A stretch of DNA of 64,000 nucleotides from Candidatus Omnitrophota bacterium (GCA_945877765.1 CAMDWQ010000011.1:2641-66640), one strand, 5' to 3'. Shown: positions 23,851 through 49,090, counted from the first letter of the stretch. Notes: generated by a model not told the origin, from the letters alone. Translations and numbers: made by a program.

Positions 23851-23872
23851 TTATAATAATGACAGTGTAGAG

Positions 23873-26715
<2,843 letters not shown>

Positions 26716-32259: not shown

Positions 32260-32468
32260 GAAAAGAATACGATTTAACCAAACTAAAGAGCCGCCGTAAT
32301 CCATACGCCAAGGCGCTCAAAAGGCAAGTGACGATCCGTATTGGAAACGACGTGATCCATTATTTTAAAGAAATGGGCAACAAAACAGGAGTGCCCTATC
32401 AAAGCCTGATCAACTTATACCTGAGAGATTGCGTGGATTCTCATCGTGTGTTGAAGTGGGCTGCGTAG
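32256..32468 (+). CDS. brnA: BrnA-family antitoxin
   Basis: ATG overlaps the brnT TGA in an ATGA context. MRKEYDLTKLKSRRNPYAKALKRQVTIRIGNDVIHYFKEM... is a CopG/RHH-like BrnA fold. Confidence 0.65.
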   Translation: MRKEYDLTKLKSRRNPYAKALKRQVTIRIGNDVIHYFKEMGNKTGVPYQSLINLYLRDCVDSHRVLKWAA

Positions 32469-32722: not shown

Positions 32723-34183
32723 TTGAAACTGCTTAAAGCACTCGTTATAGGAATTCTTTTTTTCCAACCGGTCTATGCCTCGCAAGCCGACATTCAAAAT
32801 ATTCCATCGTCCGAATATTTCTCCACCGCTCTCACTGAAATTTCCCAGGCGAAAGAATCGATCTATGTTGTCATGTATCTTGTCTCTTTCGACCCCGCCA
32901 ACCCCAATACCAAAGTCTCCCAGCTTTTAAAAGCGCTGGTCGATGCCAAAAATAGGGGAGTCTGGGTCCAAGTTATTTTTGATCAAACGATTGATTTTGC
33001 GGAAGACCAGCGGCCTGCGGAGGGATATAGAAATAAGAATGCCCCGGCGTTTGAATATTTACGGGCCAATCAGGTGGAGGTTTTCTATGATACCGAAGGG
33101 ACTTATACGCATGCCAAGGCGATTGTCATTGATCGGGAGATTTCGCTATTTGGCAGCAGCAACTGGTCCCGGGCGGCGCTGACTAAAAATAATGAAGTCA
33201 ATGCGATGGTGCGTTCATCCGAATTTGCGCAGGATCTTATTGATCAATGGGGCAAGATTGAACTTCAGCCCAATGTTGCGGTGGTAGCCGCGCCTTCTGT
33301 CAAAATCCCGCGGGATTTTCTGACCAATCCTGCGTTGTTCCAGGAAATGATCTCTCACGGCGACGAACGCGCTTTGGATGTCTATCTTTACCTCTTGAGC
33401 CAGTACCGCCAAACGGCGGATTCAAAAGTGATTCTGGATTACGACGACCTTGCGTCTTCTCTTGCCATGAGCGGTATGGCACCCGTAGATTATCGCCGGC
33501 AGATTACCAAGACCCTTTCAAAGCTAAAGGGAAAATACCGTCTGATTGATTTCCAAAACCCGACTCATGGCCAAAACGCCCAAATCACGCTGAAAGCTCC
33601 GGAGGCCGCCGATTCTTTTGATCTACCACTCACTTACTGGAAATATCACTGGCCCCAAAAACTTTCATTTCCCGCCAAGGTTATGTATCTCATTTTAATT
33701 TCTAATACCGATCTGGCGTCACCCAGTTTTACTATTTCAAGAGAAGGCCTCGCTAATGAATTTTCCATTTCAAAGTCTTTGATTTCAGACGGCACCAGAG
33801 ACTTAAGATTCCAGAACCTGCTCGACATTCAATATTCCCCCATGGACCGCGAAGATTTTTCCGACAGAAAGCCCAATAGCTACACTCCCACCCCGCTGTA
33901 TGACCCGTCAGCCCTTCAAGAATCCATAGCCGCTCTCGGCCAAAAAGAAGGACAGGCCAAACTCGATCGCGCCCTGAATGCCGCCTCCCAGGTTTTCGCC
34001 CAAAACAATCTATCTGCGATCAAATCACTCCTCGACCTCGAATCCCAATACGGCCCCGCCATCATCCACCAAGCCGCCCAAAAAATAGGCGAAAAAAAAT
34101 CCGACAACCCCAAACGATCCATCGCCTATCTAATCGCCACCATCAAAAGCATGGCCCGAATATACCGTACCCCGTCCCCATGA
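32723..34183 (+). CDS. secreted phospholipase D-family (HKD) nuclease-like protein with long C-terminal extension
   Basis: Signal peptide MKLLKALVIGILFFQPVYASQA, then the HKD motif HAKAIVIDREISLFGSSNWS (H.K....D...GS.N). The last codons are supplied by a MITE terminal repeat. Confidence 0.65.
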   Translation: MKLLKALVIGILFFQPVYASQADIQNIPSSEYFSTALTEISQAKESIYVVMYLVSFDPANPNTKVSQLLKALVDAKNRGVWVQVIFDQTIDFAEDQRPAEGYRNKNAPAFEYLRANQVEVFYDTEGTYTHAKAIVIDREISLFGSSNWSRAALTKNNEVNAMVRSSEFAQDLIDQWGKIELQPNVAVVAAPSVKIPRDFLTNPALFQEMISHGDERALDVYLYLLSQYRQTADSKVILDYDDLASSLAMSGMAPVDYRRQITKTLSKLKGKYRLIDFQNPTHGQNAQITLKAPEAADSFDLPLTYWKYHWPQKLSFPAKVMYLILISNTDLASPSFTISREGLANEFSISKSLISDGTRDLRFQNLLDIQYSPMDREDFSDRKPNSYTPTPLYDPSALQESIAALGQKEGQAKLDRALNAASQVFAQNNLSAIKSLLDLESQYGPAIIHQAAQKIGEKKSDNPKRSIAYLIATIKSMARIYRTPSP

Positions 34184-34262
34184 CCCAAAAAGGGACACGT
34201 TAACTCACGAGAGAGCATGGATTTTTTTGTTCTTTTTGACCCGCTCAGGGTTGGGGCATATA
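34167..34262. repeat. partial copy of the 177-bp MITE (left arm plus core only)
   Basis: ccccgtccccatgacccaaaaagggacacgttaac...ggatttttttgttctttttgacccgctcagggttgggg.atatactga matches 55076-55175. The right terminal repeat is absent. Confidence 0.65.
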
Positions 34263-34381
34263 CTGACTATGTTGACCCCGCTTTAAGGTCACAATTTGTG
34301 ACCTTGAATGCTTGGCCTCTGACAGGATCCACCCAAACTTGAGATGCCAATTTGGCATCTCAAACTTTCTAGCTGATACCT

Positions 34382-34858
34382 TCAAAAGCGCTTCGGCGGT
34401 TCTTCATTTTTGGGTTTATCCTCCACGAGCATTTTGATCGCTTTGAATACAACCTGAAACTGCTGGTCGTATTTTTTCTCCAACTCATCCACGCGGATTC
34501 TTAGGTCTTTGTGAGTGATTGCCAATTCACGTAATTTCATAAATGTGCGCATGATCTGGATATTTACTTGTATAGCCTTCTTACTATTTAAAACGCTGGA
34601 GAGCATCGCCACGCCTTGTTCTGTAAATGCATAAGGGCTTGCGCGGCGAATGCCACCCCAACTTGAAATCACAAATTGTGATTTCAAGTTCTCAAATTCA
34701 TTATTCGTTAGCTGAAACATGAAATCATCTGGAAATCTATCTTTATTACGCTTAACCGCCTGGATCAGTGAACGAACTTCTACATCGTAAAGCTCTGCCA
34801 AGTGGGTACTGAGCATGACTCTTTGGTTTCTTAGTGTAAAAATATATTTTTCTGTCAT
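34382..34858 (-). CDS. ORF6N-domain protein (paralogue 1)
   Basis: ATG at 34858 with AAGGAGGG RBS. LRNQRVMLSTHLAELYDVEVRSLIQAVKRNKDRFPDDFMFQLTNNEFENLKSQFVISSWGG is ORF6N-type. Confidence 0.6.
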   Translation of the reverse strand: MTEKYIFTLRNQRVMLSTHLAELYDVEVRSLIQAVKRNKDRFPDDFMFQLTNNEFENLKSQFVISSWGGIRRASPYAFTEQGVAMLSSVLNSKKAIQVNIQIMRTFMKLRELAITHKDLRIRVDELEKKYDQQFQVVFKAIKMLVEDKPKNEEPPKRF

Positions 34859-35156
34859 AAAACCCTCCTTACCATACAGGACGACACAGACCCCCTTTTT
34901 CGTCAAAAAAATATCAGGATTTTTGCTATCGGTTAACTCATTTCCAACGGAAATTGGAGGTCACAATTTGTGACCTCCAATGTTGGGGTCTGTGGAGGAC
35001 TGCTTCAGGGATTTGAACCGGTCACAATTTGTGACTAGTTCGTTTTGGCCATTGGTCGAGACGCGAGTACAGATGACACATTTTTTCATGGCGGTATTTG
35101 CGCGAGCCGTCCCAACTTGATGTCCCAAATTGGAACATCAAGCCTGCAAAATATCC

Positions 35157-35693
35157 TTACTCTGGCCTCGCGTGAAATCCAATAGTCCTTTTTCGTTTCT
35201 GTTTAAGAGGCTCTTCAATCTCTTTGATCGTTTCGAACACCACTTTAAACTGAGAGTCATATTTCCTCTCAAGTTCTTCGATCTTCTTCTGAAGGTCCTT
35301 ATGATTCAGGATATATTCTTTTAGCTTGGTAAATGTGCGCATAATTTGAATATTTACCTGGATGGCGCGCTTGGAGTTAAGAACCGAGGATAACATCAGA
35401 ATTCCATGCTCAGTAAATACCCTAGGCCTTTTACGAAGGCCGCCCCAACTTGATGTCCCAAATTGGGATATCAAGTTTTTGAACTCCTGTTCACTGAGCT
35501 GAAACATAAAATCCTCCGGGAAGCGATCGGAATTTCTCAAAACATTCCGGTTTAATATACGTGTTTCCACGTCGTAGAGGGCGGCAAGGTCTTTATCAAA
35601 CATTACCTTTTTGCCTCTGATGAAATATATTCTTCTCTCAATCGTGTCATGAGAAAGAAACGTTGAAACCTGGATAGATTTATTTTTTTGCAT
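35157..35693 (-). CDS. ORF6N-domain protein (paralogue 2)
   Basis: ATG at 35693 with GGAGG RBS. IRGKKVMFDKDLAALYDVETRILNRNVLRNSDRFPEDFMFQLSEQEFKNLISQFGTSSWGG aligns with paralogue 1 over its whole length. Confidence 0.6.
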   Translation of the reverse strand: MQKNKSIQVSTFLSHDTIERRIYFIRGKKVMFDKDLAALYDVETRILNRNVLRNSDRFPEDFMFQLSEQEFKNLISQFGTSSWGGLRKRPRVFTEHGILMLSSVLNSKRAIQVNIQIMRTFTKLKEYILNHKDLQKKIEELERKYDSQFKVVFETIKEIEEPLKQKRKRTIGFHARPE

Positions 35694-35821
35694 GGTAAGT
35701 CCTCCTACTCTACTTGACGACACAGACCCCCCTTTTCGTCAAAAAAATATCAGGATTTTTCTATCGGTTAACCTATTTCCAAAGGATTGACCGTCCCGAC
35801 CCAGGCGGGTAGACTGTCTGC

Positions 35822-36214
35822 ATGCCCCAATCCACCTCGAAGAGTCCTGCAACTGACATCATTAGCCTCCAGAAAAAAATCCTCCAATTCCGTGACGCCC
35901 GCGATTGGAAACAATTCCACAATCCCAAAGACGTAGCCCTCTCTCTAGTCTTGGAAGCCACCGAGGTCATGGAACATTTCCAGTGGAAAACTCCGGAAGA
36001 AATTAAAAAATACCTCCAAACCCACACCCCTGACATCGCCGCGGAATTAGCGGATGTTTTTTATTGGGTGCTTTTGATGAGTCATGATCTGGGGATTGAT
36101 ATGGGGGAAGCTCTGGAGAAAAAATTGAAAGTGAATGCATTGAAATATCCCGTCAAAAAAGCCAAGGGCAAGCACAGTAAGTACAATAAGGCATTCAATG
36201 GGAGGGGACGATAA
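35822..36214 (+). CDS. MazG-like nucleotide pyrophosphohydrolase (small all-alpha NTP-PPase)
   Basis: LQKKILQFRDARDWKQFHNPKDVALSLVLEATEVMEHFQWK...ELADVFYWVLLMSHDLGIDMGEALEKKL: the E..E...E..D metal-binding arrangement of MazG/YpjD-like proteins. Confidence 0.55.
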   Translation: MPQSTSKSPATDIISLQKKILQFRDARDWKQFHNPKDVALSLVLEATEVMEHFQWKTPEEIKKYLQTHTPDIAAELADVFYWVLLMSHDLGIDMGEALEKKLKVNALKYPVKKAKGKHSKYNKAFNGRGR

Positions 36215-36218
36215 GCAC

Positions 36219-37037
36219 ATGAATCTCACAAAAATCTCGCAAAAGATTTGGCAAATAGCCGGTCTTGTCGCGTGCGCTTTATTTTTGTTAGGCACTTTGG
36301 CGATTGTTGTTGGCATCGGTTTTGCGGTTTTTCAATATAAAACACATCATGTTAATGGCATTGCGGTAGACCCGATGGAGGACAAGGGAAACCTGAAAGT
36401 CACAGCTGAATATGGCTTGCCTTTGCCATTAGAAGGGTCCGATTTTTATATGATTCCTGTCACGCTTGAAAAGAAAAAACACGGACAAGCGCGGGAAGCG
36501 TTTAGCGAAGTAGCCTATAGAAGTAGGTATGATAGCTATAGTAGCGGCAGTTACTCCTCTTATTCGTGGGGGCCTTATTACAACCTCGTGTTTATCAACA
36601 AGAAAACAGGTGAATCGCGGCCACTTCTTACTCAAAAAGGGTTTATCAATGGCGTTTATTTGCCCGAAAAAAAATACGATAAGAAAGACACTGAAATCAA
36701 ACCAACATTTCTACTGCTTAAGATTGCTACCGCGGACACGAATAATGACGGTGTGATCAACGAAAAAGACGCTTCTGCGGGATTTATTGCCAGCATCGAT
36801 GGGACAAAGCTGACGCAAGTCACACCTGATAATACTCAAATGAAATGGTGGTCTTATGATTTGGCCTCACAAAGACTTTTTGTGGAAATAATTCATGATG
36901 TAAACAATGACAAAGAGTTTGATTGGGATGACCCGCAAACAGTTTTAAGCGTAAACGTTCTCGACCCAAAAATTGCCCAGGAATTTGTTTCGGCAGAAAT
37001 TAAAAATAAAATCGAAGCATTACTGCTTAAAAAATAA
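36219..37037 (+). CDS. hypothetical membrane-anchored protein
   Basis: ATG at 36219 after a GGGAGGGGA RBS. One TM helix (IWQIAGLVACALFLLGTLAIVVGIGFAV), a Ser/Tyr-rich low-complexity stretch (SRYDSYSSGSYSSYSWGPYY) and a DTNNDGVINEKD Ca-binding-like loop. Confidence 0.4.
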   Translation: MNLTKISQKIWQIAGLVACALFLLGTLAIVVGIGFAVFQYKTHHVNGIAVDPMEDKGNLKVTAEYGLPLPLEGSDFYMIPVTLEKKKHGQAREAFSEVAYRSRYDSYSSGSYSSYSWGPYYNLVFINKKTGESRPLLTQKGFINGVYLPEKKYDKKDTEIKPTFLLLKIATADTNNDGVINEKDASAGFIASIDGTKLTQVTPDNTQMKWWSYDLASQRLFVEIIHDVNNDKEFDWDDPQTVLSVNVLDPKIAQEFVSAEIKNKIEALLLKK

Positions 37038-37489
37038 GCGGAAGCTGACCGATTTTAAACCGGGCAATACTCAAACTACTCCCAAAAGAACTGCGTTAGA
37101 GGGGTTTTTTACTAACCTGGTCTTTTTTGGTGACTAGGGACATTATCCCGTTGAGATACCGTGGATTCTTCCCAAGTAGTCAAGAAGAGACTTGACCCCC
37201 GTTTCATGCTCGCAAAACACCTAATATTTATCAAGAGATTTTTATAAACAACTACCATTAAAAGGGATAGAATATACTCCAAAATAAACGAACCCACGGT
37301 CGTATAAAAAATGAAACAACAAACAGGGCGGCTAGCTTTCATTAGGCACCCATTTGGGACAAGGTCCGGCGTATAATCGCGACACTAGTACAAGATCGAT
37401 TATTTTCCTCCCACGCTCTTCCTGACTGGTTAGGTCGATTACAAGTTTCATTTTCCAATCCCACGAAGTTTTCCTATCCCATATCGAAT

Positions 37490-40027
37490 GTGGACAAATT
37501 TAATATACTGATCGCTGCTCGCGCCAAACACACTCCGTTCAAAAATTTGGCTTTGGTAAGCCCTTTCGGAATTGTAACCAATCATTGGCTTGTTCTTATA
37601 AACGTTCTGCTTTCATGTGAGGAGGATTTTAGCGATCCTAATATTGATTTATTGAATGAACTGGCTGTGGGTGACTTAATTCAAATTGATGGTAAACGAG
37701 TCTGTTTCGGGGGAATTAGAGAAACGGATCGCGGGCGCTCGATAGGATTTTATGAAACTGGGAAAAAGGGCAAGGCAGGACCATGTTATACATGGTTATC
37801 TGAAAAAGATATCCGGGGAAGAATAGCGCCGTACGCGGGGATGGCCAAAAACCCCCAGCGCTTCACAGGTAAAAAAGCACGAGCCGCAATAGGACACAAT
37901 TTATTCGCAGCTTTACACGGAATCAATGAATTCCAACCGAATATCAAGACTTCATCATTAGTTATAACGGAAAAAAAGTCTTACATAGAGGAATTGCAGA
38001 ATTTAGAAATTCATTTAGCTTATGACGTTAGTACGCTTAAGTTTCCCTTTTGTGAAGCGATCCCTGCTGCGGCATACTCTACCAACAATAAATTTAGTCG
38101 TATAGCGGCTAAGAAGAACGATAATCGACCTCTTTTGCTCAAAATTGTTTCGTCTCCGGAAGTTGGAATAGAGTTATGCCAAAACGATAAAAATATACAA
38201 ACGGTAATTATAGACGGCGAATCAAAAATATTACGAAATTTTCTTGAGCTTAAGAGGATAAAAGAGATAGAGTCAGTAAAAAATATTTACATAATTCTTT
38301 CTAATAACATAGATCAGAAATCACTAAGAGAATTGCAACAGCTAGGTTTCTTTATTTGGAAGTGGAATGAAGAGTTTATTCTAAGCATAGGTACGGAGTC
38401 TTTGCCAGATAATCGTCAAAATGGCAATATCGATACGGGGGCCATTCAGAATAAACTAATCAGTAACCTGTTAAACAAGACATCAGAAATGGTGGAAGTG
38501 GATTACCCTTCCAAGGAAGCAAAAGCCTTAATCAATGAGTATTCAGAGATATTATTCTATTTAAAAGATTTTATCGATGAGCCGCACGCTGGAGAAATTT
38601 TTAGAGAGTTCATTTGCCAGGGTTATGGGTATCGCAGTTTTATACTTTCGCCGCTGGCAGGACTTCCATCCTGCCATGACCGTGTTAATAGATATATCGA
38701 ACAACTAAAGCTCCTTATACCCGTCTTAAAGGAGCTCAATAAAGCCACTGCCTTACACCAAAGATTGGATAGACTAGCGATAGCGATTGATCGGTTTAAA
38801 GATTTATTTTGTCTCGGTGTTAACCAAAAAAATGAAATGATAAAAAAACATCTTCATTCGGAAAGGACCGGGATCGGATTGGTATTAAAGAACTTACCGG
38901 CTAATAGCGTTCTAGATGAATTCGGCAAATTTATCGGCAAAGGCCTTTCATATCGATTTCTAAAGCTCTCCGACTTAAAAAGTTTTCACCCCTTCGATAG
39001 CTTGTTGTTTACTGGGTGGCTGGGAAGCAACCATCCCTATTACTTAAATTGCCCTTTAGCACCTAAGCATTTATATTTCTTGTACGACATAGAGAAAAAA
39101 ATTTATGAAATCATGCAGAGCCGGCAGCAATTGCATAACTTTCCTGAGCCCTTGGAAAGAGTTGCAGCTCTTTTAGATCTAACTCCAAGCGAGGTATTAT
39201 CGCTGGCGCCATCGTTAGCCCCTTCCAACCTTGCTTCAGTTGAGGAATTTGTTAAAAATAAAAGAGAAGTCAATTTAAACGATCTCTATGACGCTATCTG
39301 CTCAAAGAGAATCCCGTCATATTCTGGAACCGGAGAGATCGGAGAAGAATTGCTCCCTTCAAAATGCATTTTTTTTGAAGATGATCAATACGGCTTCTTT
39401 TCTGAAAATTACATAGCCAAAGTGTTGGATAGATCTAAGGAGGAAGTAATCGATAAGGATCTTAGCGTGCTCGCTGAGGGAGATGAGCTTTTGTTTTTGG
39501 AAGACTCCAAGAGAGATTTATTTCAGGTCATGGCTATAGAACTTCATAAAAAAATGCCGGATAGGATAGAAGAAGCAAAGATTTGGAGGGATAGTCTTAA
39601 ACGATTAAAAACAGAAAAGAATTACTCTGTTGAGAAACTTAATTCTGTACTTAGAGAAAATGGAGTTATTCAAGAGATCTCGACTTTGAAGGGATGGGTA
39701 AGTGATAAAGAAATGATAGCACCTCAATCACTTGACCGCCTGATAGACGTTCTCTCGACTCTATTAAATGATGCGACTATAGGGTCTAAAAAGAAATTAA
39801 TCATAACCGCTTGCAGACGAATTCGTGCGTCACATAACATTTTGGGAAGGTATCTGGCGAAACAATTAATTGGATCGTTTAATAAAGGCGCTAACACGGT
39901 ACAGCAAGATTTGGCAGCAAGCGCCGAAGAATTGAGGAAACACGTATATACGCTGCAAATAAATAAATTGTCCGATGACGTTCAGGCTGTTCCGGTATCG
40001 ATTCTTAACAAGGTATTTGAGCTATAA
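37490..40027 (+). CDS. 845-aa protein of unknown function, first gene of the candidate defence operon (DruF/DrmE-like by position and size only)
   Basis: No motif recognised by eye. Its stop (TAA) is directly followed by the ATG of the next gene. Confidence 0.4.
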   Translation: MDKFNILIAARAKHTPFKNLALVSPFGIVTNHWLVLINVLLSCEEDFSDPNIDLLNELAVGDLIQIDGKRVCFGGIRETDRGRSIGFYETGKKGKAGPCYTWLSEKDIRGRIAPYAGMAKNPQRFTGKKARAAIGHNLFAALHGINEFQPNIKTSSLVITEKKSYIEELQNLEIHLAYDVSTLKFPFCEAIPAAAYSTNNKFSRIAAKKNDNRPLLLKIVSSPEVGIELCQNDKNIQTVIIDGESKILRNFLELKRIKEIESVKNIYIILSNNIDQKSLRELQQLGFFIWKWNEEFILSIGTESLPDNRQNGNIDTGAIQNKLISNLLNKTSEMVEVDYPSKEAKALINEYSEILFYLKDFIDEPHAGEIFREFICQGYGYRSFILSPLAGLPSCHDRVNRYIEQLKLLIPVLKELNKATALHQRLDRLAIAIDRFKDLFCLGVNQKNEMIKKHLHSERTGIGLVLKNLPANSVLDEFGKFIGKGLSYRFLKLSDLKSFHPFDSLLFTGWLGSNHPYYLNCPLAPKHLYFLYDIEKKIYEIMQSRQQLHNFPEPLERVAALLDLTPSEVLSLAPSLAPSNLASVEEFVKNKREVNLNDLYDAICSKRIPSYSGTGEIGEELLPSKCIFFEDDQYGFFSENYIAKVLDRSKEEVIDKDLSVLAEGDELLFLEDSKRDLFQVMAIELHKKMPDRIEEAKIWRDSLKRLKTEKNYSVEKLNSVLRENGVIQEISTLKGWVSDKEMIAPQSLDRLIDVLSTLLNDATIGSKKKLIITACRRIRASHNILGRYLAKQLIGSFNKGANTVQQDLAASAEELRKHVYTLQINKLSDDVQAVPVSILNKVFEL

Positions 40028-41746
40028 ATGGAAATACGATTAATACCACCCTATTTAAGTAGCTCGGTTAAAAGCAACGCGGAAAAAAGAACGTTTGCTG
40101 CAATCCAGTTAATTTCTGCGCCAGCTTACTGTTTTCATTCGCTAAATCTGCCTGAGAAAATAAAGAGAAAACCCGAATGCGAAATTGATTTTCTTTTCCT
40201 AAGCGTCAGGGGAATTATGTGTCTTGAGGTAAAGGGTGGATCTGTACGTCGAGTTGACGGGGTGTGGCAATTTGAAAATCGGTTTGGCGAGGTGACAAAG
40301 AAAATCGAGGGCCCATTCGAACAAGTTCAGAACGCGATGTACGCATTAAAACAACGAATAAAGAATAAATATGGAGCTGATTCAAACCTATTGAAATGTT
40401 TATTTGGGTACGGAGTCATATTTCCAGATACTGATTTTAAAGATGCATCAGCCGAATGGGACCTTGAAATTGTATGTGACAAGATTCGATTCAATAGACC
40501 CATTTCTGACTATATAACAGCATTACATGAATATTGGGCTTTAAAGAAACCTCAATCAAGGCCCCTTACGAACAATGAAGTGGATGAGTTGGCTCAATAT
40601 CTGAGGGGTGATTTTCACTGTGTTGTCCCATTAAAAGATTATATCGGAAACATCAACGAAGAGCTCCTGTCTCTAACCGGTGAACAGCTTAGTCTTCTAG
40701 CGGGACTCGACCAAAATCCTAGGCTAATCATTAACGGGCCGGCCGGGAGTGGCAAGACTCTCATGGCTGTAGAGAAAGCTAAATGTGAGGCGGCAAGGGG
40801 ACAAAAAACGCTTCTAATTTGCTCTAGCGATATTCTAGCCGAGCATCTCCAGCATATGTGTTCGGAATATATCAATCTCTCGGTTACAAATATATTTGCG
40901 CTGTTTAAATCAATTCAAACTTGCGGAGATTTATCCGATATAAAGAAACCGATCCGTGAGAATGAATATAAAATAGATTTACCCCTTATTCTCAAACGAC
41001 AAAAGTTGATTGATAGCGCACATCTATACGACTCGATAATAGTTGATGAAGCCCAAGATATTTTAAAAAGTACGTTTCTAGAAGTTTTAAATGGGTGTCT
41101 TAAGGGAGGATTTCAGAACGGTAGATGGACGCTTTTCTACGACAAATTCCGTCAAGCCGGTCTTTACGGTGATTCCGACAGCGGCGTTGCGTCTATTCTG
41201 GAAAAATTCAAGCCAACCCTATTCAATCTAGGTACGAACTGTAGGAATACCAAGAAAATTGCCGAAGAAACGGAAATGATAACGAATTATATTTTCCAGA
41301 AAATCCTTCACGACGGAGGTCGAAAATCTCGGGTTGAGTTTTATAAGGATATTGAAGAAAGGAACAGCACCCTTTTGTCAATTATGTCAGACTTGGCCAA
41401 ACAAGATATTTCCAAGGGTAGACAAATAATATTAACGCTTGAAAATGAAACTAATTTTTTAAATTCGGTGTCAGGGATACACGGTTATAAGTTTCAATCA
41501 TTGTCCAAATTCGACCAATTTAAGTCTGATCAACATCTCAATTTGGTTTGCGAAGCAAAGAGGTTCAAGGGACTTGAGAGTGATATAGTTATTATTCCCG
41601 AAATAAAAAGTTTTGATCAAACGGTGGAGTTATATGTAGCTATGACACGGGCAAAAGCGATGCTTTTTCTACTTATCGATTCCAGCTTGAAGAAGCAATA
41701 TCAAGAGCGCTTTAAACTGTACGTGGAAAGGAAAGTCTTAATATGA
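40028..41746 (+). CDS. NERD-domain + SF1 (UvrD/AAA_19-like) helicase/nuclease
   Basis: N-terminal ECEIDFLFLSVRGIMCLEVKGGSV (NERD-type EVKG motif). Walker A GPAGSGKTLMAV, Walker B IVDEAQDIL, C-terminal YVAMTRAKAMLFLLID (SF1 motif VI). The ATG follows the previous stop with zero gap. Confidence 0.6.
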   Translation: MEIRLIPPYLSSSVKSNAEKRTFAAIQLISAPAYCFHSLNLPEKIKRKPECEIDFLFLSVRGIMCLEVKGGSVRRVDGVWQFENRFGEVTKKIEGPFEQVQNAMYALKQRIKNKYGADSNLLKCLFGYGVIFPDTDFKDASAEWDLEIVCDKIRFNRPISDYITALHEYWALKKPQSRPLTNNEVDELAQYLRGDFHCVVPLKDYIGNINEELLSLTGEQLSLLAGLDQNPRLIINGPAGSGKTLMAVEKAKCEAARGQKTLLICSSDILAEHLQHMCSEYINLSVTNIFALFKSIQTCGDLSDIKKPIRENEYKIDLPLILKRQKLIDSAHLYDSIIVDEAQDILKSTFLEVLNGCLKGGFQNGRWTLFYDKFRQAGLYGDSDSGVASILEKFKPTLFNLGTNCRNTKKIAEETEMITNYIFQKILHDGGRKSRVEFYKDIEERNSTLLSIMSDLAKQDISKGRQIILTLENETNFLNSVSGIHGYKFQSLSKFDQFKSDQHLNLVCEAKRFKGLESDIVIIPEIKSFDQTVELYVAMTRAKAMLFLLIDSSLKKQYQERFKLYVERKVLI

Positions 41747-44700
41747 TCCCAAATCCTTTAAATCATGAACAAGTTAGAACGGATTTGTTGGATTATATGC
41801 GCAAAGAGCTAGTTGGCCCTCAATCAGACGATGAAATTCTTGACGGCGATAACGTGCCTCAGATCGATCACTACATAGCAGGTGTTCTTTACCCTCAATC
41901 TAAAACCGACTCAGAAGATGATCGATTAGCAACTCAGCCTGATATTAGCGAAGAAGATGCAGATATTGCCGATGATCTAGAAACTAAAGTATACGGGTTA
42001 TCCAATATCTATATGCCTGCATCAATGGGTATCAGTTGCCAGCTAGCCATACCAGCCAAAGAAGGTGTTCAATACAAAGTTACGTGCGCCCGGTATGAGT
42101 TACAGAAGACAGAGATCAAGAATGCTAGCGGGCGTTCCACGCATTGGGTGCGCATACCGATTAAGAAAGAGGGTTCAATAACTCTTCAAGAATTGGCGAA
42201 AGGGAAAGTCACCATAGAAATCGAGAAAGGTCTCGAGCTTGTTTGTATTTTTAAACCCGATAAGGGGTACCTTACAGTAAGTTTAGTTAACGAAAATGAG
42301 TACGATGTTTCCGTAGAAGAGAAAGTGAAACCTAGAAAACTAACTCCAAACTGTTTTTTCCAGTCAGAGTTGGTTCTAACCGGTGCCGGCGACGATCATT
42401 TTCTTCCAAGAAAACCGTATGAATGTCCGGATGGCAAAGAACGAACATACGAAATGTTGTTTCGAAATAAGCCTACCTTTGCCATTGGTCATGGCTGCGC
42501 TGCCGACTGGGATAAAAGCCGCTCAAATAGAACGAACTCGGTAAAAACGACTACGTTTCCGGTTGAATCTGTGCCAAGCGTCGATTTTGAAGTTATTCAG
42601 GATAAAAAAATTCTTCAGGTACTGGACATGAAACGACTTTCAGAGTCTCTTCATCAAAAGGAAGAAATTTTGTCTGATTTGCGCCAATTTGCCAAAGAAT
42701 ACGATCTATGGATAGACCGAATCGAGACGAGCGACGTCGACCCGGTATTTTACGACGTTGCTAAAGAAAATATTATTAAATGCAGAATGTCGTTCGAGCG
42801 GATAGAGGCAGGAATTCAAAAGTTAGAGGATGACCCAGAAGTTTTTGAAGCGTTCGTTCTCATGAATAAAGCGATGGTTCTGCAGCGGCTTGGCCATGAC
42901 CCAAAAGAACCAAGCACCTGTCGCTGGAGACCCTTCCAGCTTGCATTTATCTTACTGAGTGTCGTCGGTTTAATTGATGATCAGTCATCGGACAGAAATA
43001 TAGTTGATTTAATTTGGTTTCCTACCGGAGGCGGAAAAACAGAAGCATATCTTGGGATTACAGCTTTCATTATTTTCTACCGAAGAATCAAATATAAAGC
43101 GTTGGGGGGCGGTACTGCCGCAATCATGCGCTACACTTTAAGGCTTTTAACAACTCAACAACTTCAACGCGCCACTAGGCTAATGTGCGCCTGCGAAATT
43201 ATTAGAAAACAAAATTCAATAAGATACGGTAGCGAGGTAATCAGTTCGGGAATTTGGGTAGGGGGCGATACAACTCCCAACACTTCGTCTGTTTATCGAG
43301 AGCAATTAGAAGACGGTGAATTTGTAAAAATTCTTTCAATGTGCCCGTGGTGTGAATCGGCGCTTCAATACAGTAAGAGGACAAATCCGAAAATATATTG
43401 TAAAAATGAAAATTGTAAATTCTCAAAAGGCTTACCAATATTATTTGTGGATGATGATATATACGAGAACCCACCCACTTTCTTGGTTAGCACTGTCGAT
43501 AAATTTGCTAATCTTTCTTTAAAAGCGGACCCAAAAAATAAGAAAAAGGATGCCGCCCGGATATTTGCTGCGGATGCGGGCAACCAAAAAATAGCCCCCT
43601 CCTTAATTATTCAGGACGAATTACATTTAATATCAGGTGCCTTAGGTACTTTAGTTGGATTATTCGAGATCGTTATAGAAGAGTTGTGCTCACTCAAAAA
43701 AATTAAGCCAAAAATTGTCGCAGCGACAGCGACCATAAGAGGAGCGGAGGAACAAACAAAAAATCTTTTCAATAGAGAAGTATTTCAATTTCCATCGCCT
43801 GGGATAAGTATTGAAGATTCGTTCTTTGCCGTGGAAAAAACTTCAAAGGAAAATCGGTTATACGTTGGAGTACAGGCATCTGGGCACACCTTTACGACAA
43901 CAGAAGTCAGGGTATTTTCAGCATTATTACAAGGAATCTATGAAATTAAATCGGCATATGAGGAGGGAAAAACTCCAGAGGAGATGGCTGCCGTGCAGGA
44001 ACTCATAGACCCGTACTGGACGATGATTGCCTATTTCAATAGCGTTAGACAACTAGGTAAGTGTCATAGCCTGCTGGATCAAGATATTGCAACGCAAATG
44101 GTGGAGTTATCAAAGCGATCCGGCTCTCGCAGACGTTTTATCCCGGACAGGGGCATTAGAGAAATGACCGGAACAAGAAAAACGAAAGATATTGCAGAAA
44201 TTTTAGCCGAACTATTTTATCCACTAAATAGCAAGAAAGCGCTTGATATAGTTCTGACCACAAATATGTTTTCCGTTGGGGTAGACATATCGCGTTTGGG
44301 AGCTATGGTAATTACAAGCCATCCAAAAACAAATGCAGAATATATTCAGGCATCCAGTCGGGTTGGCAGAAAATATCCCGGAATTATTTTTACGGTTTAC
44401 GATTTTTCACGATCGAGAGACCGCTCTTACTATGAGAATTTTGTCGGGTACCATCGGGCACTCTATAGGCATGTCGAGGTTTCTAGCTTAACACCTTTTT
44501 CAATGGCGTCTGTAGATAGAGGGATGAAGAGCGTCATTATCTCCTTATTGCGACAAAGATTTCGTTCGATGGGAGTTGATGATTTAAACACACTTTCTGC
44601 AGATAAACGAGACAAGGTGATTGAAGAGATAAGAGGACTGATTCTTAAAAGAGTGAACGCAGTTGATCAATCCGAATTACGTATGGTTACTTTAAAGCTT

Positions 44701-46716
44701 ACCAGTTGGTTTGTAGAGCTAAAAGAATTCTTGTCCTCACGGGCAAACGCAGAATATAAAGAGCTAATCTATAACCCATCTCTGGGCTCGCCGAGGCAGC
44801 CGTTCCAATGGGATGTTTTATACTCAATGAGGAATGTGGATGAAAGCGCCCGAATCAAAGTAGGAGTTATCAATGGTCAAGAAATATGGGATGAGGACAA
44901 ATCGTGGAACGAAATAAGAAAAAATCAATTAATTGTTCCTTTTGGCCCGGGAGCTATTGTTGAGCTCGAGAACTCAAAAAGCGCGCTCGTTTCTAGATGG
45001 CACGGCAAGGGCGACCCGGTAAGCGATATGCCAGATGAACGATTTATTCAACGCCTATCTCGGTTAAGAGTGAAAGAATTAGTAGCTCCGCCATCGGCAA
45101 AACAAAAGCCGATAGGGGCAGTTCTATTTCCCGCATGGGGTTTTTGTAAAAGCTGTAGAAAATTCGGCGAAATAAAAAATACATTTAAATTTGATGCCCG
45201 CAATGGCAAAGAACGGTGGTCTTGTGAGTGTAGTGGAAGGTCAAAATTATCGGACGCTAAAAAATTTATGAATGCAGTCGTGCAAATAAAATTCATCGCC
45301 GTGTGTTCCGACGGGCATATAGACGACTTACCTTGGGGCGAGCTTCTTCATAAAAGCCCTAGCTATATGAATGACGGAGCTCTCCATCAGTTTAAGTACG
45401 AGTCCTTCGGCGGCTCTCTTGGTGAAGAAAGCTTGTCATGTTCATGCGGAATTGCTCCGTTTCGACTCAATCAGTTGAAAAAGGCAATAACGGGACAACT
45501 TTGTAAAAATCGTCCGTTAACGGACTACAGCACGCAAGAAGGCGTTTGCCCTCGTAATATCGAAATGAAGCATAGGGGAGCATCAAGTACGTACTTTCCC
45601 GTGGTTAGAACTTCGATATATTTGCCACCGCAGGATGATGCTGGTCTTAATAAAGTTTTGGTTAGGCTAAGAAACACCTTAGAGGATGCAGGGGGCACAA
45701 TTCCTGAGGATCAAAAAAGAATAATAGTAGAAAATAACCTTATCCAAATTGGTGTTGTTAAAGAGATCGCATGGCCCACATATCTCCGATTTATTGAACC
45801 CGTTGACATCGCTCAGGCGACAAATGTTGACGAAGAGATTAAGTACAGGGAAGAAGAGTATAAAGTATTCTCCGCGCCCGCAGTCAATCAGCAAGTTTTT
45901 CTAAAAGATCTAGTTTTGGATGAGGTTAGCCCAAGCGTATTGCGGTCTAAAAAATATCCTGAAGAAATTTCTGATATGAAATTAATTAAGACCTTAAAGG
46001 AAACTAGGGCAATTCTGGGCTACACGCGAATCTATCCTATCGACTTTGAAGAAGGTGAGGGCGCAGAGGGTAGGCGCGCTGGTATGATTTCATTGATCAA
46101 AAATTATAAGATTCCTGCCATTGAGGTTCGAGGCGAAGGCATATTCTTTAGACTGAATCCAAGCATGATTAGTGATTGGGCAAAAAAATCAAACGTTGTC
46201 AAACGAGTTAGAATTATTAACGAACACGAACGACTCTCGGGCAGACAATATGGAGTTGGCGTAAAAAATGTTACACCTGCTTTTATCTTAATTCACACAT
46301 TAGCCCATGCCTTAATTAGATATTTGGGAATGGAATGCGGTTACGGGACGGCTTCCCTGCGTGAAAGAATATACTGTCATCAGGTTGAAGGAGATATTAG
46401 AATGGCCGGCGTGATGATTTATACTGCATCCGGAGACGCGGCAGGGACTCTCGGAGGGTTAGTCCGGCAGGGCAGGGAAGACCGCTTTCCGACTTTGTAT
46501 AGGAATGCGATCCATTCAATGGATTGGTGCTCTTCTGACCCGCTTTGTATTCAATCCAAAGGGCAAGGAAGAGACGGTTTGAATGTGTCGGCCTGCCATG
46601 CTTGCGCACTATTACCTGAGACTAGTTGCGAGTTTCAAAATGTTTACTTAGATAGAGCGCTTTTAAACGGCACCATTGATGACCCCAAAATTGGTTTTTT
46701 TAAAAGGTATGAATAG
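41743..46716 (+). CDS. 1657-aa SF2 DEAH-type helicase with Zn-ribbons and a Cys-rich DUF1998-like C-terminal domain (DruE/DrmA-DrmB-like)
   Basis: Motif I WFPTGGGKTEAY, motif II IIQDELHLISG, motif VI QASSRVGRK. Zn-ribbon CPWCESALQY...CKNENC. Cys-rich mid region (CKSCRKF...CECSG, CSDGH, CSCG). C-terminal MDWCSSDPLCIQS...ACHACALLPETSCEFQNVYLDRALL. Overlaps the previous gene by 4 nt. Confidence 0.65.
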   Translation: MIPNPLNHEQVRTDLLDYMRKELVGPQSDDEILDGDNVPQIDHYIAGVLYPQSKTDSEDDRLATQPDISEEDADIADDLETKVYGLSNIYMPASMGISCQLAIPAKEGVQYKVTCARYELQKTEIKNASGRSTHWVRIPIKKEGSITLQELAKGKVTIEIEKGLELVCIFKPDKGYLTVSLVNENEYDVSVEEKVKPRKLTPNCFFQSELVLTGAGDDHFLPRKPYECPDGKERTYEMLFRNKPTFAIGHGCAADWDKSRSNRTNSVKTTTFPVESVPSVDFEVIQDKKILQVLDMKRLSESLHQKEEILSDLRQFAKEYDLWIDRIETSDVDPVFYDVAKENIIKCRMSFERIEAGIQKLEDDPEVFEAFVLMNKAMVLQRLGHDPKEPSTCRWRPFQLAFILLSVVGLIDDQSSDRNIVDLIWFPTGGGKTEAYLGITAFIIFYRRIKYKALGGGTAAIMRYTLRLLTTQQLQRATRLMCACEIIRKQNSIRYGSEVISSGIWVGGDTTPNTSSVYREQLEDGEFVKILSMCPWCESALQYSKRTNPKIYCKNENCKFSKGLPILFVDDDIYENPPTFLVSTVDKFANLSLKADPKNKKKDAARIFAADAGNQKIAPSLIIQDELHLISGALGTLVGLFEIVIEELCSLKKIKPKIVAATATIRGAEEQTKNLFNREVFQFPSPGISIEDSFFAVEKTSKENRLYVGVQASGHTFTTTEVRVFSALLQGIYEIKSAYEEGKTPEEMAAVQELIDPYWTMIAYFNSVRQLGKCHSLLDQDIATQMVELSKRSGSRRRFIPDRGIREMTGTRKTKDIAEILAELFYPLNSKKALDIVLTTNMFSVGVDISRLGAMVITSHPKTNAEYIQASSRVGRKYPGIIFTVYDFSRSRDRSYYENFVGYHRALYRHVEVSSLTPFSMASVDRGMKSVIISLLRQRFRSMGVDDLNTLSADKRDKVIEEIRGLILKRVNAVDQSELRMVTLKLTSWFVELKEFLSSRANAEYKELIYNPSLGSPRQPFQWDVLYSMRNVDESARIKVGVINGQEIWDEDKSWNEIRKNQLIVPFGPGAIVELENSKSALVSRWHGKGDPVSDMPDERFIQRLSRLRVKELVAPPSAKQKPIGAVLFPAWGFCKSCRKFGEIKNTFKFDARNGKERWSCECSGRSKLSDAKKFMNAVVQIKFIAVCSDGHIDDLPWGELLHKSPSYMNDGALHQFKYESFGGSLGEESLSCSCGIAPFRLNQLKKAITGQLCKNRPLTDYSTQEGVCPRNIEMKHRGASSTYFPVVRTSIYLPPQDDAGLNKVLVRLRNTLEDAGGTIPEDQKRIIVENNLIQIGVVKEIAWPTYLRFIEPVDIAQATNVDEEIKYREEEYKVFSAPAVNQQVFLKDLVLDEVSPSVLRSKKYPEEISDMKLIKTLKETRAILGYTRIYPIDFEEGEGAEGRRAGMISLIKNYKIPAIEVRGEGIFFRLNPSMISDWAKKSNVVKRVRIINEHERLSGRQYGVGVKNVTPAFILIHTLAHALIRYLGMECGYGTASLRERIYCHQVEGDIRMAGVMIYTASGDAAGTLGGLVRQGREDRFPTLYRNAIHSMDWCSSDPLCIQSKGQGRDGLNVSACHACALLPETSCEFQNVYLDRALLNGTIDDPKIGFFKRYE

Positions 46717-47818
46717 AAAAAATTCTAAACTAAACATAACGGCGGTTGACCTCTTCTGCGGAGCGGGAGGCCTGACGCGCGGCCTGCTTGATTCCGGGAT
46801 CAAAGTTAAAATCGGTGTCGATTTCGATGGACAGTTTAAAGATACATATGAAAAAAATAATCATCCTTCGCGATTCTTGCAATGTGACATTAGAAAACTA
46901 AAAACCAAATATTTGGAAGAATGCCTAAAATTAGAAGAAACAGATTTATTTTTGCTCTCCGCATGTGCTCCGTGCCAACCCTTTAGCCGCCAAAATTCTA
47001 AACATCATTACGATAGACGTAAATCCCTATTGCTAGAAGTAGTTCGAATTCTTGACGAGCTAAAACGTAAGCCCGATTTTTTATTTTTTGAGAATGTTCC
47101 ACATATTAACAGATCTGAAAGGAGCACTGTTCTCAGAAGACTTAGGAAGGCACTTGTCAAAATGGGCTATTCCTTTGATTCGAAAATTGTGGATGCAGCA
47201 ATATATGGCGTCCCACAACGGAGAAAGAGGTTTATTCTAATAGCCGTTAAGAAAAAAATCGCTGGTAACACCGTCCGTTTTCCTGAAGAACTGTTTGGAA
47301 AAGATCGAAATCAGCCATATCGTACAGTGAGAGAGGCCATAGGTGCTTTCCCGCGCATAAGAGCAGGCCAAACTCACGCGCAAGTAGCAAATCATCAAAC
47401 TCAGTCATTGACTACAAAGACTCGGATGCGATTGCTATTAACGCCTAAAAATGGGGGTTCTCGCCGAGATTGGCCCGATCGCGTAAAATTAAAATGCCAC
47501 GAAGAGCATGTTGGGCATTGGGATGTTTACGGTCGAATGAAATGGAATGAGCCCAGCCCCACTCTTACGTGTCGATGCACGTCAATTTCAAATGGGCGTT
47601 TTGGACACCCAACTCAGCTGAGAGCAATTTCTTTGCGTGAAGCAGCAGCGCTGCAAACATTTCCGAACGATTATCAATTTTACGGAAGTTTTAAAGCTAT
47701 AGCAATGCAAGTAGGTAATGCCGTTCCCGTTCTGTTGGCTGAAGCATTTGGTAAGCATTTTATTGAAATCGGCAACGGTAAGTCCTTTGCCACAAGGACG
47801 GAGAAGAATACCGAATAA
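46709..47818 (+). CDS. DNA (cytosine-5)-methyltransferase
   Basis: Motif I DLFCGAGG, IV PCQPFS, VI FFENVP, VIII QRRKRFILIA, X GNAVPV. The ATG at 46709 overlaps the upstream gene by 8 nt. Confidence 0.85.
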   Translation: MNRKNSKLNITAVDLFCGAGGLTRGLLDSGIKVKIGVDFDGQFKDTYEKNNHPSRFLQCDIRKLKTKYLEECLKLEETDLFLLSACAPCQPFSRQNSKHHYDRRKSLLLEVVRILDELKRKPDFLFFENVPHINRSERSTVLRRLRKALVKMGYSFDSKIVDAAIYGVPQRRKRFILIAVKKKIAGNTVRFPEELFGKDRNQPYRTVREAIGAFPRIRAGQTHAQVANHQTQSLTTKTRMRLLLTPKNGGSRRDWPDRVKLKCHEEHVGHWDVYGRMKWNEPSPTLTCRCTSISNGRFGHPTQLRAISLREAAALQTFPNDYQFYGSFKAIAMQVGNAVPVLLAEAFGKHFIEIGNGKSFATRTEKNTE

Positions 47819-47890
47819 TCTGGGGACACGTACCGAATTCCTCGAATTCTTTATTGGCTATGTTAGATTAGGGCCGCGTCCTGAGAATTT
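47818..47890. repeat. MITE-like repeat (GGGACACGTACC family), degenerate copy
   Basis: aatctggggacacgtaccgaattcctcgaattc...gttagattagggccgcgtcctgagaatt; the left arm is intact and the right arm diverged. Confidence 0.6.
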
Positions 47891-47955
47891 TGAGAAGTTA
47901 ATGTTAAGGCCAAACACTAGTTGGAGAAGTATATGTTAAACGGCGAGAAGCAGTT

Positions 47956-48744
47956 TTGCGCTTAAATTTTGACGTATCAGTTGCCAGTCATTTCAGGAGC
48001 GCATCCCAAAGAGCGCGAGTTTTAACAGAAGCTTGGGTTGATAGCCAGGTCTACTGTCCTAACTGTGGGCTTCTCGGTATAGATAAATATCCTAATAATA
48101 ATCCCGCCGCCGATTTTCACTGCTCGAATTGCCATGAAGACTATGAGCTCAAAAGTAAAAATTCTAAAATTGGAACAAGAGTTGTCGACGGAGCCTACCG
48201 AACATTGATTCAAAAGCTGCGAGGCAATACCAATCCCAATCTATTTTTGTTAAATTACGATCCACGAAGCGCCGAGGTTCTAAATTTTTTTGTGATCCCA
48301 AAGCACTTTTTTATTCCTGAAATTATTGAAAAAAGGAAGCCGCTTGCACCTACCGCTCGCCGTGCCGGTTGGGTTGGTTGTAACATTCTTCTGCATGATA
48401 TCCCGCCAACCGGAATAATTTATTTTGTAAAAAATCGTATTATTGAGTCAAGGGTAAAGGTGCTTTCCTGTTGGAAAAAGACACTGTTTTTGAGAGAAGA
48501 GAAAGAGCTCGTCGCCAAAGGCTGGCTTTTGGATGTGATGCGCTGCGTCGAGCGGCTTAACCAAAGTTTTTCACTTGATGAAGTTTATTCTTTTGCGGGA
48601 GAGCTGGGCATAAAACACCCTGAGAATCGACATATCAAGGATAAAATTCGTCAGCAGTTGCAGGTTCTGCGTGAGAGAGGCTATCTCGAGTTTATCGCGA
48701 ATCCGGGGACACGTACCGAATTCCTGAGGGGCTTAGTCTATTAG
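47956..48744 (+). CDS. Zn-ribbon protein, candidate nuclease partner of the methyltransferase
   Basis: CPNCG-x17-CSNCHEDYELKSK (Zn-ribbon followed by a D...E.K-like triad). The C-terminal half is helical (winged-helix-like?). The last ~12 codons (ANPGTRTEFLRGLVY) are encoded by the MITE. Confidence 0.35.
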   Translation: MRLNFDVSVASHFRSASQRARVLTEAWVDSQVYCPNCGLLGIDKYPNNNPAADFHCSNCHEDYELKSKNSKIGTRVVDGAYRTLIQKLRGNTNPNLFLLNYDPRSAEVLNFFVIPKHFFIPEIIEKRKPLAPTARRAGWVGCNILLHDIPPTGIIYFVKNRIIESRVKVLSCWKKTLFLREEKELVAKGWLLDVMRCVERLNQSFSLDEVYSFAGELGIKHPENRHIKDKIRQQLQVLRERGYLEFIANPGTRTEFLRGLVY

Positions 48745-48786
48745 GTACGTGTCCCGAGATTCCGAGATTCCGTCCCGAGATTCCGC
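48698..48786. repeat. MITE-like repeat (GGGACACGTACC family), full copy
   Basis: gaatccGGGGACACGTACCgaattcctgaggggcttagtctattaGGTACGTGTCCCgagattccgagattccgtcccgagattccg: a 12-bp inverted repeat around a ~26-bp core, plus a cgagattcc tandem tail. Confidence 0.75.
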
Positions 48787-48912
48787 AAGTAGTTAATTTA
48801 AGAGCAGAGTGTTATATTTTTAATTTCCAGCGAGGATACGTATGAAAAATTTGATTGCCCAAAAAATGCGCCCAAACGACCCATTGCCGTTTATATTTCT
48901 GCTTCTTTGCGC

Positions 48913-49090
48913 GGAATCCGGGGACACGTACCGAATTCCTGAGTGGCTATAGTATATTAGGTACGGAATCCGGGCGGAATCCGGGCGAATCCGGGGACAC
49001 GTACCGAATTCCTGAGGGGCTTAGTCTATTAGGTACGTGTCCCGAGATTCACGAGATTCAGCCGAGATTCCGTGTCCCGAGATTCCGTTG
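48913..49090. repeat. MITE-like repeat (GGGACACGTACC family), two tandem copies (first truncated)
   Basis: ggaatccggggacacgtaccgaattcctgagtggctatagtatattaggtacg, then (ggaatccgggc)x2, then a complete copy ending gtgtcccgagattccg. Confidence 0.75.

Follow-up and report, generated by a model that had tools for sequence, protein, structure and literature searches.

In DISARM systems, a methyltransferase, whose loss is toxic, marks self DNA, and DrmAB binds DNA via 5′ single-stranded ends, held off by a trigger loop. The class 2 prototype, from Bacillus paralicheniformis, is laid out as drmE-drmA-drmB-drmC-drmMII according to later summaries of Ofir et al. 2018 (10.1101/2021.12.28.474362, PMC9252829); anti-phage activity in this class cannot do without DrmA, DrmB, or DrmE, and DrmC is dispensable. 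The published PADLOC rule for type II requires DrmA, DrmB, and DrmC along with DrmE and DrmMII, so loci without DrmC would not be called. Here, we describe a locus of this kind in a 64,000-nucleotide stretch of DNA from Candidatus Omnitrophota bacterium (GCA_945877765.1 CAMDWQ010000011.1:2641-66640; hereafter the window, with positions counted from its first letter). Judged by profile matches, its four-gene operon belongs to the DISARM family as a class 2-like member without a phospholipase D (PLD)-type DrmC, and it encodes, between DrmE and a single-chain DrmA-DrmB protein, a NERD nuclease domain joined to a superfamily 1 (SF1) helicase. We read it, with a probability of about 0.62, as a restriction-modification-like anti-phage operon of which the NERD-SF1 protein would be an integral nuclease component. 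The operon and the gene that follows it comprise:

37346-40027 (called start 37490), plus strand: DrmE-family gene, 845 aa counted from the GTG (NF038316, Pfam DrmE_C, PADLOC DrmE)
40028-41746, plus strand: NERD-SF1 nuclease-helicase gene, 572 aa, ATG start (Pfam NERD and ResIII/UvrD_C_2, PADLOC RTasNERD-Hel)
41743-46716, plus strand: single-chain DrmA-DrmB fusion, 1657 aa, ATG start (PADLOC DrmA and DrmB, NCBIfam, PDB 7S9V chains)
46709-47818 (start TTG 46676 in the open reading frame lister), plus strand: C5-cytosine DNA methyltransferase gene, 369 aa (Pfam DNA_methylase, TIGR00675)
47956-48744, plus strand: DpnI-family endonuclease gene, 262 aa (Pfam DpnI and DpnI_C, PADLOC mREase_II)

The open reading frame (ORF) list and a direct reading of the junctions bear out the earlier claim of translational coupling among four co-directional genes (37490-40027, 40028-41746, 41743-46716, and 46709-47818). 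The DrmE stop at 40027 abuts the ATG at 40028 of the NERD-helicase gene with a 0-nt gap, the ATG of DrmAB at 41743 overlaps the NERD-helicase stop at 41744-41746 by 4 nt (ATGA), and the methyltransferase gene, from its ATG at 46709, shares 8 nt with the end of DrmAB (stop at 46714-46716). The lower GC content ascribed to the locus was likewise recovered, at 0.38-0.43 in the operon against ~0.46 in the flanks. Promoter and terminator scans gave no signal above shuffled background.

The 572-aa protein had been described as a NERD plus SF1 helicase, and the profile searches agree (Pfam NERD 1.4e-9, together with ResIII/UvrD_C_2). Its best PADLOC model is RTasNERD-Hel (2.2e-45, full length), and partial PADLOC matches extend to Nhi, AbiO, and GajB; that to Nhi (7.2e-11) covers aa 298-550 only, and the gene context is not standalone. 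Across 24 homologs, E52, D54, E67, and K69, the Walker A residues G240-T244, and the Walker B pair D340/E341 are invariant. On this basis, we assign the protein as a predicted PD-(D/E)xK nuclease of the NERD type fused to an SF1 helicase. An alignment-based AlphaFold2 model (predicted local distance difference test, pLDDT, 85.7) returned SLFN11/14, Upf1, Dna2, and RecD2 as top Foldseek matches, so that the predicted fold most resembles nuclease-helicases and SF1B helicases.

In the 1657-aa protein, a DrmA-like superfamily 2 (SF2) helicase part (approximately aa 1-1045; 41743-44877) is followed by a DrmB-like OB/DUF1998 part (approximately aa 1046-1657; 44878-46716). Both are recovered by PADLOC (DrmA 1.1e-204, DrmB 1.1e-66) and by the solved Serratia chains (7S9V_A DrmA 9.3e-124, 7S9V_B DrmB 8.2e-57). 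Among the NCBIfam profiles, DISARM_DrmAS scores 870.6 bits, just below its equivalog cut-off of 950, and DrmB_fam scores 372.7 bits, above its cut-off of 240. The profile search that had been proposed as a check for DUF1998 returned MZB/DUF1998 at 2.1e-7 alongside Helicase_C; with GGGKT, DELH, SRVGR, and several CxxC motifs or Cys clusters intact, the description of an SF2 helicase with Zn-ribbons and DUF1998 fits, as does the observation that DUF1998 is fused to the helicase rather than separate.

The DISARM trait of DrmA and DrmB in separate adjacent genes is thus replaced here by a single ORF, and a 2025 survey presents DISARM as the one YprA branch that consistently keeps the two parts apart (PMC12458937). 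The identical 1657-aa ORF occurs in three assemblies, two of them besides the window's own; fused DrmAB homologs are encoded in the loci L003, L005, L041, and L042, with orthologs at 44-47% identity, and the three closest fused forms cluster together in both the NERD-helicase tree and the DrmA tree. No fused DrmA-DrmB was seen in the 72 assessable metagenome loci described below. About 25 of the 120 top protein matches are fused, in a list where the full-length query favors fused matches, and one of the fused matches bears the NCBI annotation 'DrmB family protein'. Taken together, these comparisons indicate that the fusion is genuine and uncommon. An apparent triple fusion of 2057 aa (P0156; L034 945-7118), in which a fused DrmAB is joined to the C-terminal portion of an SF1 helicase (with UvrD_C_2 at aa 111-156), was considered as Rosetta-stone evidence and set aside, since its contig has 1.96x coverage and the ORF is probably a frameshift artifact.

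The 845-aa protein, for which no recognizable motif had been seen, turns out to match NCBIfam NF038316 (DrmE_fam) over its full length at 5.9e-73 and 246.5 bits (cut-off 80), Pfam DrmE_C at 1.4e-12 and 48.1 bits (cut-off 27), and PADLOC DrmE at 4.1e-9. With the narrower DISARM_DrmE equivalog NF038323, it reaches 50.9 bits, below the cut-off of 250; we therefore place it, by profile score, in the broader NF038316 group of the DrmE family and outside the DISARM_DrmE equivalog. Its true start probably lies upstream of the called GTG at 37490, at a non-canonical codon near 37352-37376, because the frame stays open back to 37346 and the peptide encoded there (…ALPDWLGRLQVSF…) aligns with the N-termini of homologs of 886 and 888 aa. 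No ATG, GTG, or TTG occurs in the open frame upstream of 37490, where ATT 37352, ATA 37373, and ATC 37376 are the sole candidates. A single-sequence AlphaFold2 model of the protein (mean pLDDT 36) was unusable for fold inference, a homolog search by word index returned the query itself as its sole match, and a metagenome scan with a DrmE alignment gave zero confirmed matches.

The 369-aa protein had been called a Dcm-type C5 methyltransferase with its motifs, and it is recovered as such by Pfam DNA_methylase (PF00145, 6.7e-57) and TIGR00675 dcm (146.8 bits), with motifs I (FCGAGG), IV (APCQ), VI (ENV), VIII (QRRKR), and X (GNAV) present. Its PADLOC scores rank MTase_II (1.8e-88) above DruM (1.2e-78) and DrmMII (2.1e-51); because generic type II, DruM, and DrmMII models all match, the methyltransferase does not discriminate DISARM from Druantia. 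As for the remaining class 2 component, Pfam and PADLOC scans found no PLD ORF within 37346-48744, in line with the earlier remark that no PLD-type drmC is adjacent; a PLD ORF does lie 3.3 kb upstream, at 32723-34183. We considered it as a detached DrmC and rejected it: it scores 57 bits against the DrmC_I cut-off of 133, is NucT-like with a hydrophobic signal-peptide-like N-terminus, has two opposite-strand ORF6N genes between itself and the operon, and has no homolog in related loci.

The same layout recurs well beyond the window. The recurring order is DrmE, NERD-helicase, DrmA (with DrmB fused or separate), and C5 methyltransferase, often with Vsr nearby, and the proteins are 20-47% identical; NERD-helicase homologs in the same gene order share 37-44% identity. 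It was found in L003, L005, and L041 (all with fused DrmAB), in Alkaliphilus hydrothermalis (L006/L007), in a protein cluster with 1331 members, and, within an apparent composite transposon, in Virgibacillus siamensis. Scanning genomes brought further loci, with split DrmA and DrmB and a NERD-helicase, in metagenome-assembled genomes of Sedimenticola, Alteromonadaceae, Chromatiaceae, Planctomycetales, and Solirubrobacteraceae, and in Salinarimonas ramus, and 18 contigs are apparently common to the top-120 match lists of the NERD-helicase and of DrmAB. The suspicion that a NERD-helicase in this position falls outside the canonical systems and may mark an undescribed variant is strengthened by this recurrence across phyla. 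No description of a NERD-helicase DISARM was found in full-text searches of the literature and in the supplements of the YprA paper, a coverage that leaves aside the supplements of Ofir et al. 2018, which may catalog such loci. The layout thus appears to be new and is evidently widespread across bacteria, as far as gene order and profile matches can tell.

In Virgibacillus siamensis (L035), the genes run Vsr-DrmE-NERD-helicase-DrmA-DrmB-methyltransferase and are enclosed by two copies, inverted relative to each other, of a four-gene transposon module (1721-4648 and 17505-20432) encoding DUF6431, an rve transposase, a TniB-like ATPase, and DUF5348. The arrangement resembles a composite transposon with the complete system as its cargo. 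Among related operons more generally, genes beside the methyltransferase or DrmB encode an AspBHI-like 5-methylcytosine-dependent endonuclease, an HhH-GPD glycosylase, an AIPR abortive-infection protein, and, very often, Vsr (L008 10707-11891; L013 18302-19018; L036 4345-6384; L003 16739-17155). The window locus has DpnI in place of such companions and is without Vsr.

A scan of metagenomes with a DrmA alignment yielded 598 confirmed relatives, of which the closest 80 were kept. A full-length NERD-SF1 helicase adjoins DrmA/DrmB in 36 of these 80 loci, lying between DrmE and DrmA, as in the window, in 14 of the 36, and directly after DrmB, the canonical position of DrmC, in the other 22; one of the 80 loci (L069) has an Mrr-type nuclease (Mrr_cat) in that slot. 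DrmC or PLD proteins, detected by tblastn with DrmC sequences together with a relaxed HKD pattern, were present in none of the 36 loci with the NERD-helicase, compared with 15 of the 44 others (Fisher p = 6e-5; 2e-3 with near-duplicates collapsed).

Pairwise distances, compared with those of DrmA over 44 loci, gave Pearson coefficients of 0.86 for the NERD-helicase (0.91-0.93 on subsets), 0.90 for DrmB, 0.90 for DrmE, and 0.49 for the methyltransferase. An earlier 24-pair test of the NERD-helicase against DrmA gave r = 0.91, with none of 2000 permutations as high. Because its co-divergence with DrmA is about as tight as that of DrmB and DrmE, the NERD-helicase appears to be inherited with the core as faithfully as these two, with the methyltransferase exchanged far more often, co-inheritance being no proof of physical cooperation. 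By the same comparisons, the NERD-helicase is not a one-off or chance insertion.

A second recurrent architecture combines DrmA/B (fused in Psychrobacter) with a UvrD-like helicase of ~400 aa, a protein of ~540 aa without a Pfam match, and the NERD-helicase, at these loci:

L042, 10001-19500: second-architecture locus
L009, 11642-19486: second-architecture locus
L011, 445-9642: second-architecture locus

Neither DrmE nor a methyltransferase was detected inside this gene set, which may represent a methylase-less DISARM-like system. That the NERD-helicase is kept there without DrmE and the methyltransferase fits a partnership with DrmAB itself.

The gene downstream of the operon had been described as a Zn-ribbon candidate nuclease; its product instead matches Pfam DpnI at 1.6e-72 (243.4 bits, positions 1-182 of 183), DpnI_C at 2.7e-26 (92 bits), and PADLOC mREase_II at 7.1e-100, and so resembles DpnI (type IIM) in both the catalytic and the C-terminal winged-helix domain over its full length. 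We assign it as a DpnI-family methyl-directed endonuclease, with a Gm6ATC-type specificity predicted from its sequence. It appears to be a defense gene separate from the coupled operon, from whose methyltransferase it is parted by a 137-nt spacer, and it is bracketed by REP-like repeats (repetitive extragenic palindromes). Tetranucleotide counts (GATC at 0.86 of expectation) are uninformative on host methylation. The statement that the operon is flanked by miniature inverted-repeat transposable elements (MITEs) has to be revised, as the repeats bracket the DpnI gene and not the whole operon. Copies lie at 47817 (47817-47895), 48697 (48697-48762), 48915, and 48985, and additionally at 53304.

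47817-49050, no strand assigned: cluster of REP/MITE-like palindromic repeats with units of ~50-66 nt (families D1, D3, and D6; inverted pairs I4, I5, and I8)

Upstream of the operon, the window carries the following features:

30636-30710, plus strand: tRNA-Glu(UUC) (ARAGORN and Rfam)
31894-32468, no strand assigned: BrnT toxin (3e-28)/BrnA antitoxin (5.2e-10) pair (Pfam and PADLOC)
32723-34183, no strand assigned: the NucT-like PLD protein with its signal-peptide-like N-terminus (Pfam and PADLOC)
34382-34906 and 35157-35723, minus strand: two ORF6N genes, PADLOC candidate PDC-S05 (2.5e-55 and 6.2e-60)
35822-36214: MazG-like pyrophosphohydrolase gene
36198-37037: 279-aa ORF with only a weak TIR-like PADLOC match (E = 0.003)

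Sister strains from the same study have contigs that match the window at 99-100% identity up to 30709/30710 and are unrelated beyond; because they match up to this point and then diverge completely, the 3′ end of tRNA-Glu marks exactly where, on the left, a strain-variable island begins. Its cargo in the window comprises the genes listed above from BrnT/BrnA onward, the DISARM-like operon, and the DpnI gene. The operon had been placed next to a tRNA gene, which holds in part: the tRNA lies 6.8 kb upstream and is not adjacent, and it is at the same time the island's exact boundary. At the same tRNA site, one sister strain carries an SNF2/PLD helicase (1119 aa) and an MmeI-type methyltransferase (1115 aa) (L030 14539-21242), and another carries a serine recombinase (L032 4958-6385); the site is an integration and defense hotspot. 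A search for another copy of the tRNA-Glu 3′ end, which would mark the island's right border, returned none. Within the island, the two ORF6N genes form an imperfect tandem duplication of ~835 bp (34226-35790), with common repeats up- and downstream (D2, D4, D5, and D7). The MazG-like gene and the 279-aa ORF overlap by 17 nt and may be a two-gene defense or anti-defense cassette. A second family of short palindromic repeats (GGGGTCAAATCTCC…) has a hairpin copy at 31691-31789 and one arm at 37166-37199, ~290 nt upstream of the DrmE gene.

The island starts ~9 kb from dnaA. The origin region of the window comprises mnmG and yidC (minus strand), then dnaA, dnaN, dciA, gyrB, an intein-containing gyrA, and tRNA-Glu. 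The cumulative GC-skew minimum at ~21-23 kb and a drop in GC to 0.36 between 22 and 24 kb accompany a likely replication origin at about 19900-24200. The gyrA gene (26802-30629; 1275 aa) is split by a LAGLIDADG intein (Pfam DNA_topoisoIV, Intein_splicing, LAGLIDADG_3, DNA_topoisoIV, and DNA_gyraseA_C).

By analogy with known DISARM, the methyltransferase would mark host DNA at a short motif, and DrmAB together with DrmE would engage incoming DNA via free or single-stranded ends and be licensed where the mark is missing. The comparative genomics suggest that the NERD-SF1 protein would fill the canonical nuclease role of DrmC, its helicase motor translocating and its PD-(D/E)xK site cutting the DNA engaged by DrmAB. 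We hold it reasonably probable that the protein serves in this way as the nuclease module of its class, acting on DNA engaged by DrmAB and DrmE. The adjacent DpnI-type enzyme would add a separate, complementary barrier that cuts adenine-methylated invader DNA. More tentatively, with the odds leaning slightly the other way, NERD-SF1 nuclease-helicases could mark out a DISARM class that is widespread and as yet without a name, in which the degradation of DNA would fall to them, as effectors recruited by DrmAB and DrmE, instead of to a PLD protein.

Several other explanations have to be weighed against this one. The original prediction had favored Druantia type II (DruM/DruF/DruG/DruE) in a rearranged gene order, and a large DUF1998 helicase, a cytosine methyltransferase with a DruM match, and two large accessory genes do recall that system. 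No DruE, DruF, or DruG model appears, however, among the PADLOC matches of any of the four proteins; the helicase matches the DrmA and DrmB models and the solved chains, the 845-aa protein falls in the DrmE family, and DruM scores below the generic type II methyltransferase. We consider a Druantia assignment extremely improbable, and DISARM class 2, which had been named as the alternative, proves to be the right family neighborhood, with DrmA, DrmB, DrmE-family, and C5 methyltransferase matches in one operon. It is only slightly less improbable that the locus is a housekeeping DNA-repair operon of the MrfAB/YprA type or an inactive remnant. YprA-family helicases do include repair enzymes, dnaA is close by, and the DrmE gene lacks a canonical start where its homologs begin. 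Against this stand the fact that sister strains lack the region and have other restriction-type cargo or a recombinase in its place, the neighboring defense and toxin-antitoxin genes, the intact state of all ORFs with their catalytic motifs, and the mobility of the same operon on the Virgibacillus composite transposon. What was found is the cargo of a strain-variable island, and not a housekeeping operon in a syntenic context.

The more serious competitor, which we nevertheless consider unlikely, is that the NERD-SF1 helicase is an independent, embedded single-gene defense (Nhi-like) inside a DrmC-less class 2 DISARM, carried there for shared regulation and joint transfer, and that it acts by itself and is not needed for DISARM activity. 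Defense genes are often nested in DISARM, BREX, and type I restriction-modification operons, 96.7% of them co-oriented with the host system (10.1101/2024.01.29.577857); NERD-SF1 homologs are found alone or in other contexts, the partial PADLOC matches to Nhi, AbiO, and GajB point the same way, and the position of the gene varies between before DrmA and after DrmB. An embedded passenger would sit poorly, however, with co-divergence as tight as that of DrmB and DrmE and far above that of the exchangeable methyltransferase, with strict mutual exclusion of the NERD-helicase and DrmC across the 80 loci, with an association kept down to ~25% identity in two architectures, including one that is DrmE-less and methyltransferase-less, and with translational coupling on both sides. 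For these reasons, we favor the NERD-SF1 protein as an integral nuclease component. The invariant nuclease and ATPase residues and the resemblance of the predicted fold to SLFN11/14 and Dna2 also speak for it, and alternative nucleases in DISARM-like operons have precedents in the RmuC-domain ShdA homologs (PMC10270631) and the Mrr_cat nuclease of L069.

Several points weigh against that preference. The 80-locus sample consists of the closest relatives of this DrmA and is not a random sample of DISARM, and rank correlations are much lower than the Pearson values (Spearman 0.40 for DrmA-NERD, 0.67 for DrmA-DrmB, and 0.22 for DrmA-methyltransferase). DISARM-linked NERD-helicases are not cleanly monophyletic in a neighbor-joining tree. 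NERD-SF1 homologs of ~32-35% identity lie away from DISARM, beside genes for a dynamin-like GTPase and WYL proteins; in Saccharibacteria, such a homolog occurs with no DISARM gene nearby, and further non-DISARM cases occur in several genome loci. Because of these occurrences, and because the PADLOC model that fits the protein best belongs with reverse-transcriptase defense systems, the family can work without DrmAB. DrmC itself was dispensable in both DISARM systems tested (10.1101/2021.12.28.474362), so occupying its slot is no proof of an essential effector role. The DrmE gene is without a canonical start codon at the position implied by its homologs, and defense activity, methylation at a host motif, and an interaction of the NERD-helicase with DrmAB all stand as predictions.

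With the assigned nuclease DrmC being dispensable, the NERD-SF1 nuclease-helicase is a concrete candidate for the DNA-destroying effector of DISARM-type immunity and, if the proposal is true, this class would supply DISARM's missing executioner. The window locus belongs to a large, phylogenetically broad DISARM-like group in which DrmC is absent and the nuclease-helicase co-evolves with DrmA, DrmB, and DrmE. Current detection rules, by requiring DrmC, are likely to overlook or wrongly classify a considerable fraction of DISARM-type systems. Cultured isolates carrying this system exist, such as Virgibacillus siamensis and Alkaliphilus hydrothermalis, and make the hypothesis testable. The natural single-chain DrmAB could simplify reconstitution and offer a convenient minimal form for structural and biochemical work.

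Among described systems, class 2 DISARM is the closest, sharing with the window locus a DrmA-type SF2 helicase, a DrmB-type OB/DUF1998 protein, a DrmE-family gene upstream, and a C5 methyltransferase in a single co-directional operon within a defense island. Here, in contrast, there is no PLD-type DrmC, a NERD-SF1 nuclease-helicase stands between DrmE and DrmA, DrmA and DrmB form one polypeptide, and DrmE is of the broader NF038316 subfamily. The class 1 DrmAB of Serratia (PDB 7S9V/7S9W; PMC9142583) aligns to the window protein with both chains, helicase motifs and the Cys cluster at the C-terminus included; the window protein is, however, one chain rather than two and of the short DrmA type (DrmAS) rather than the long, and the Serratia partners, the SNF2 protein DrmD and an N6 methyltransferase, are replaced by DrmE and a C5 methyltransferase. 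With Nhi-type single-gene defense, GajB, SLFN11/14, and Dna2, the nuclease-helicase shares an N-terminal nuclease joined to an SF1 helicase, and SLFN11/14 and Dna2 are among its best structural matches. Its sequence matches to Nhi and GajB are confined to the helicase part, and membership in Nhi is not established; unlike them, the gene is embedded in, and appears to co-evolve with, a DrmAB operon. 'Many uncharacterized DISARM-like classes' are said to exist (PMC12458937), and ShdA homologs with an RmuC domain occur in DISARM-like operons (PMC10270631). Such operons with other nucleases have in common with the window locus a DrmA/DrmB core accompanied by a non-PLD nuclease; what sets the window locus apart is that its predicted NERD nuclease is fused to an SF1 motor of its own.

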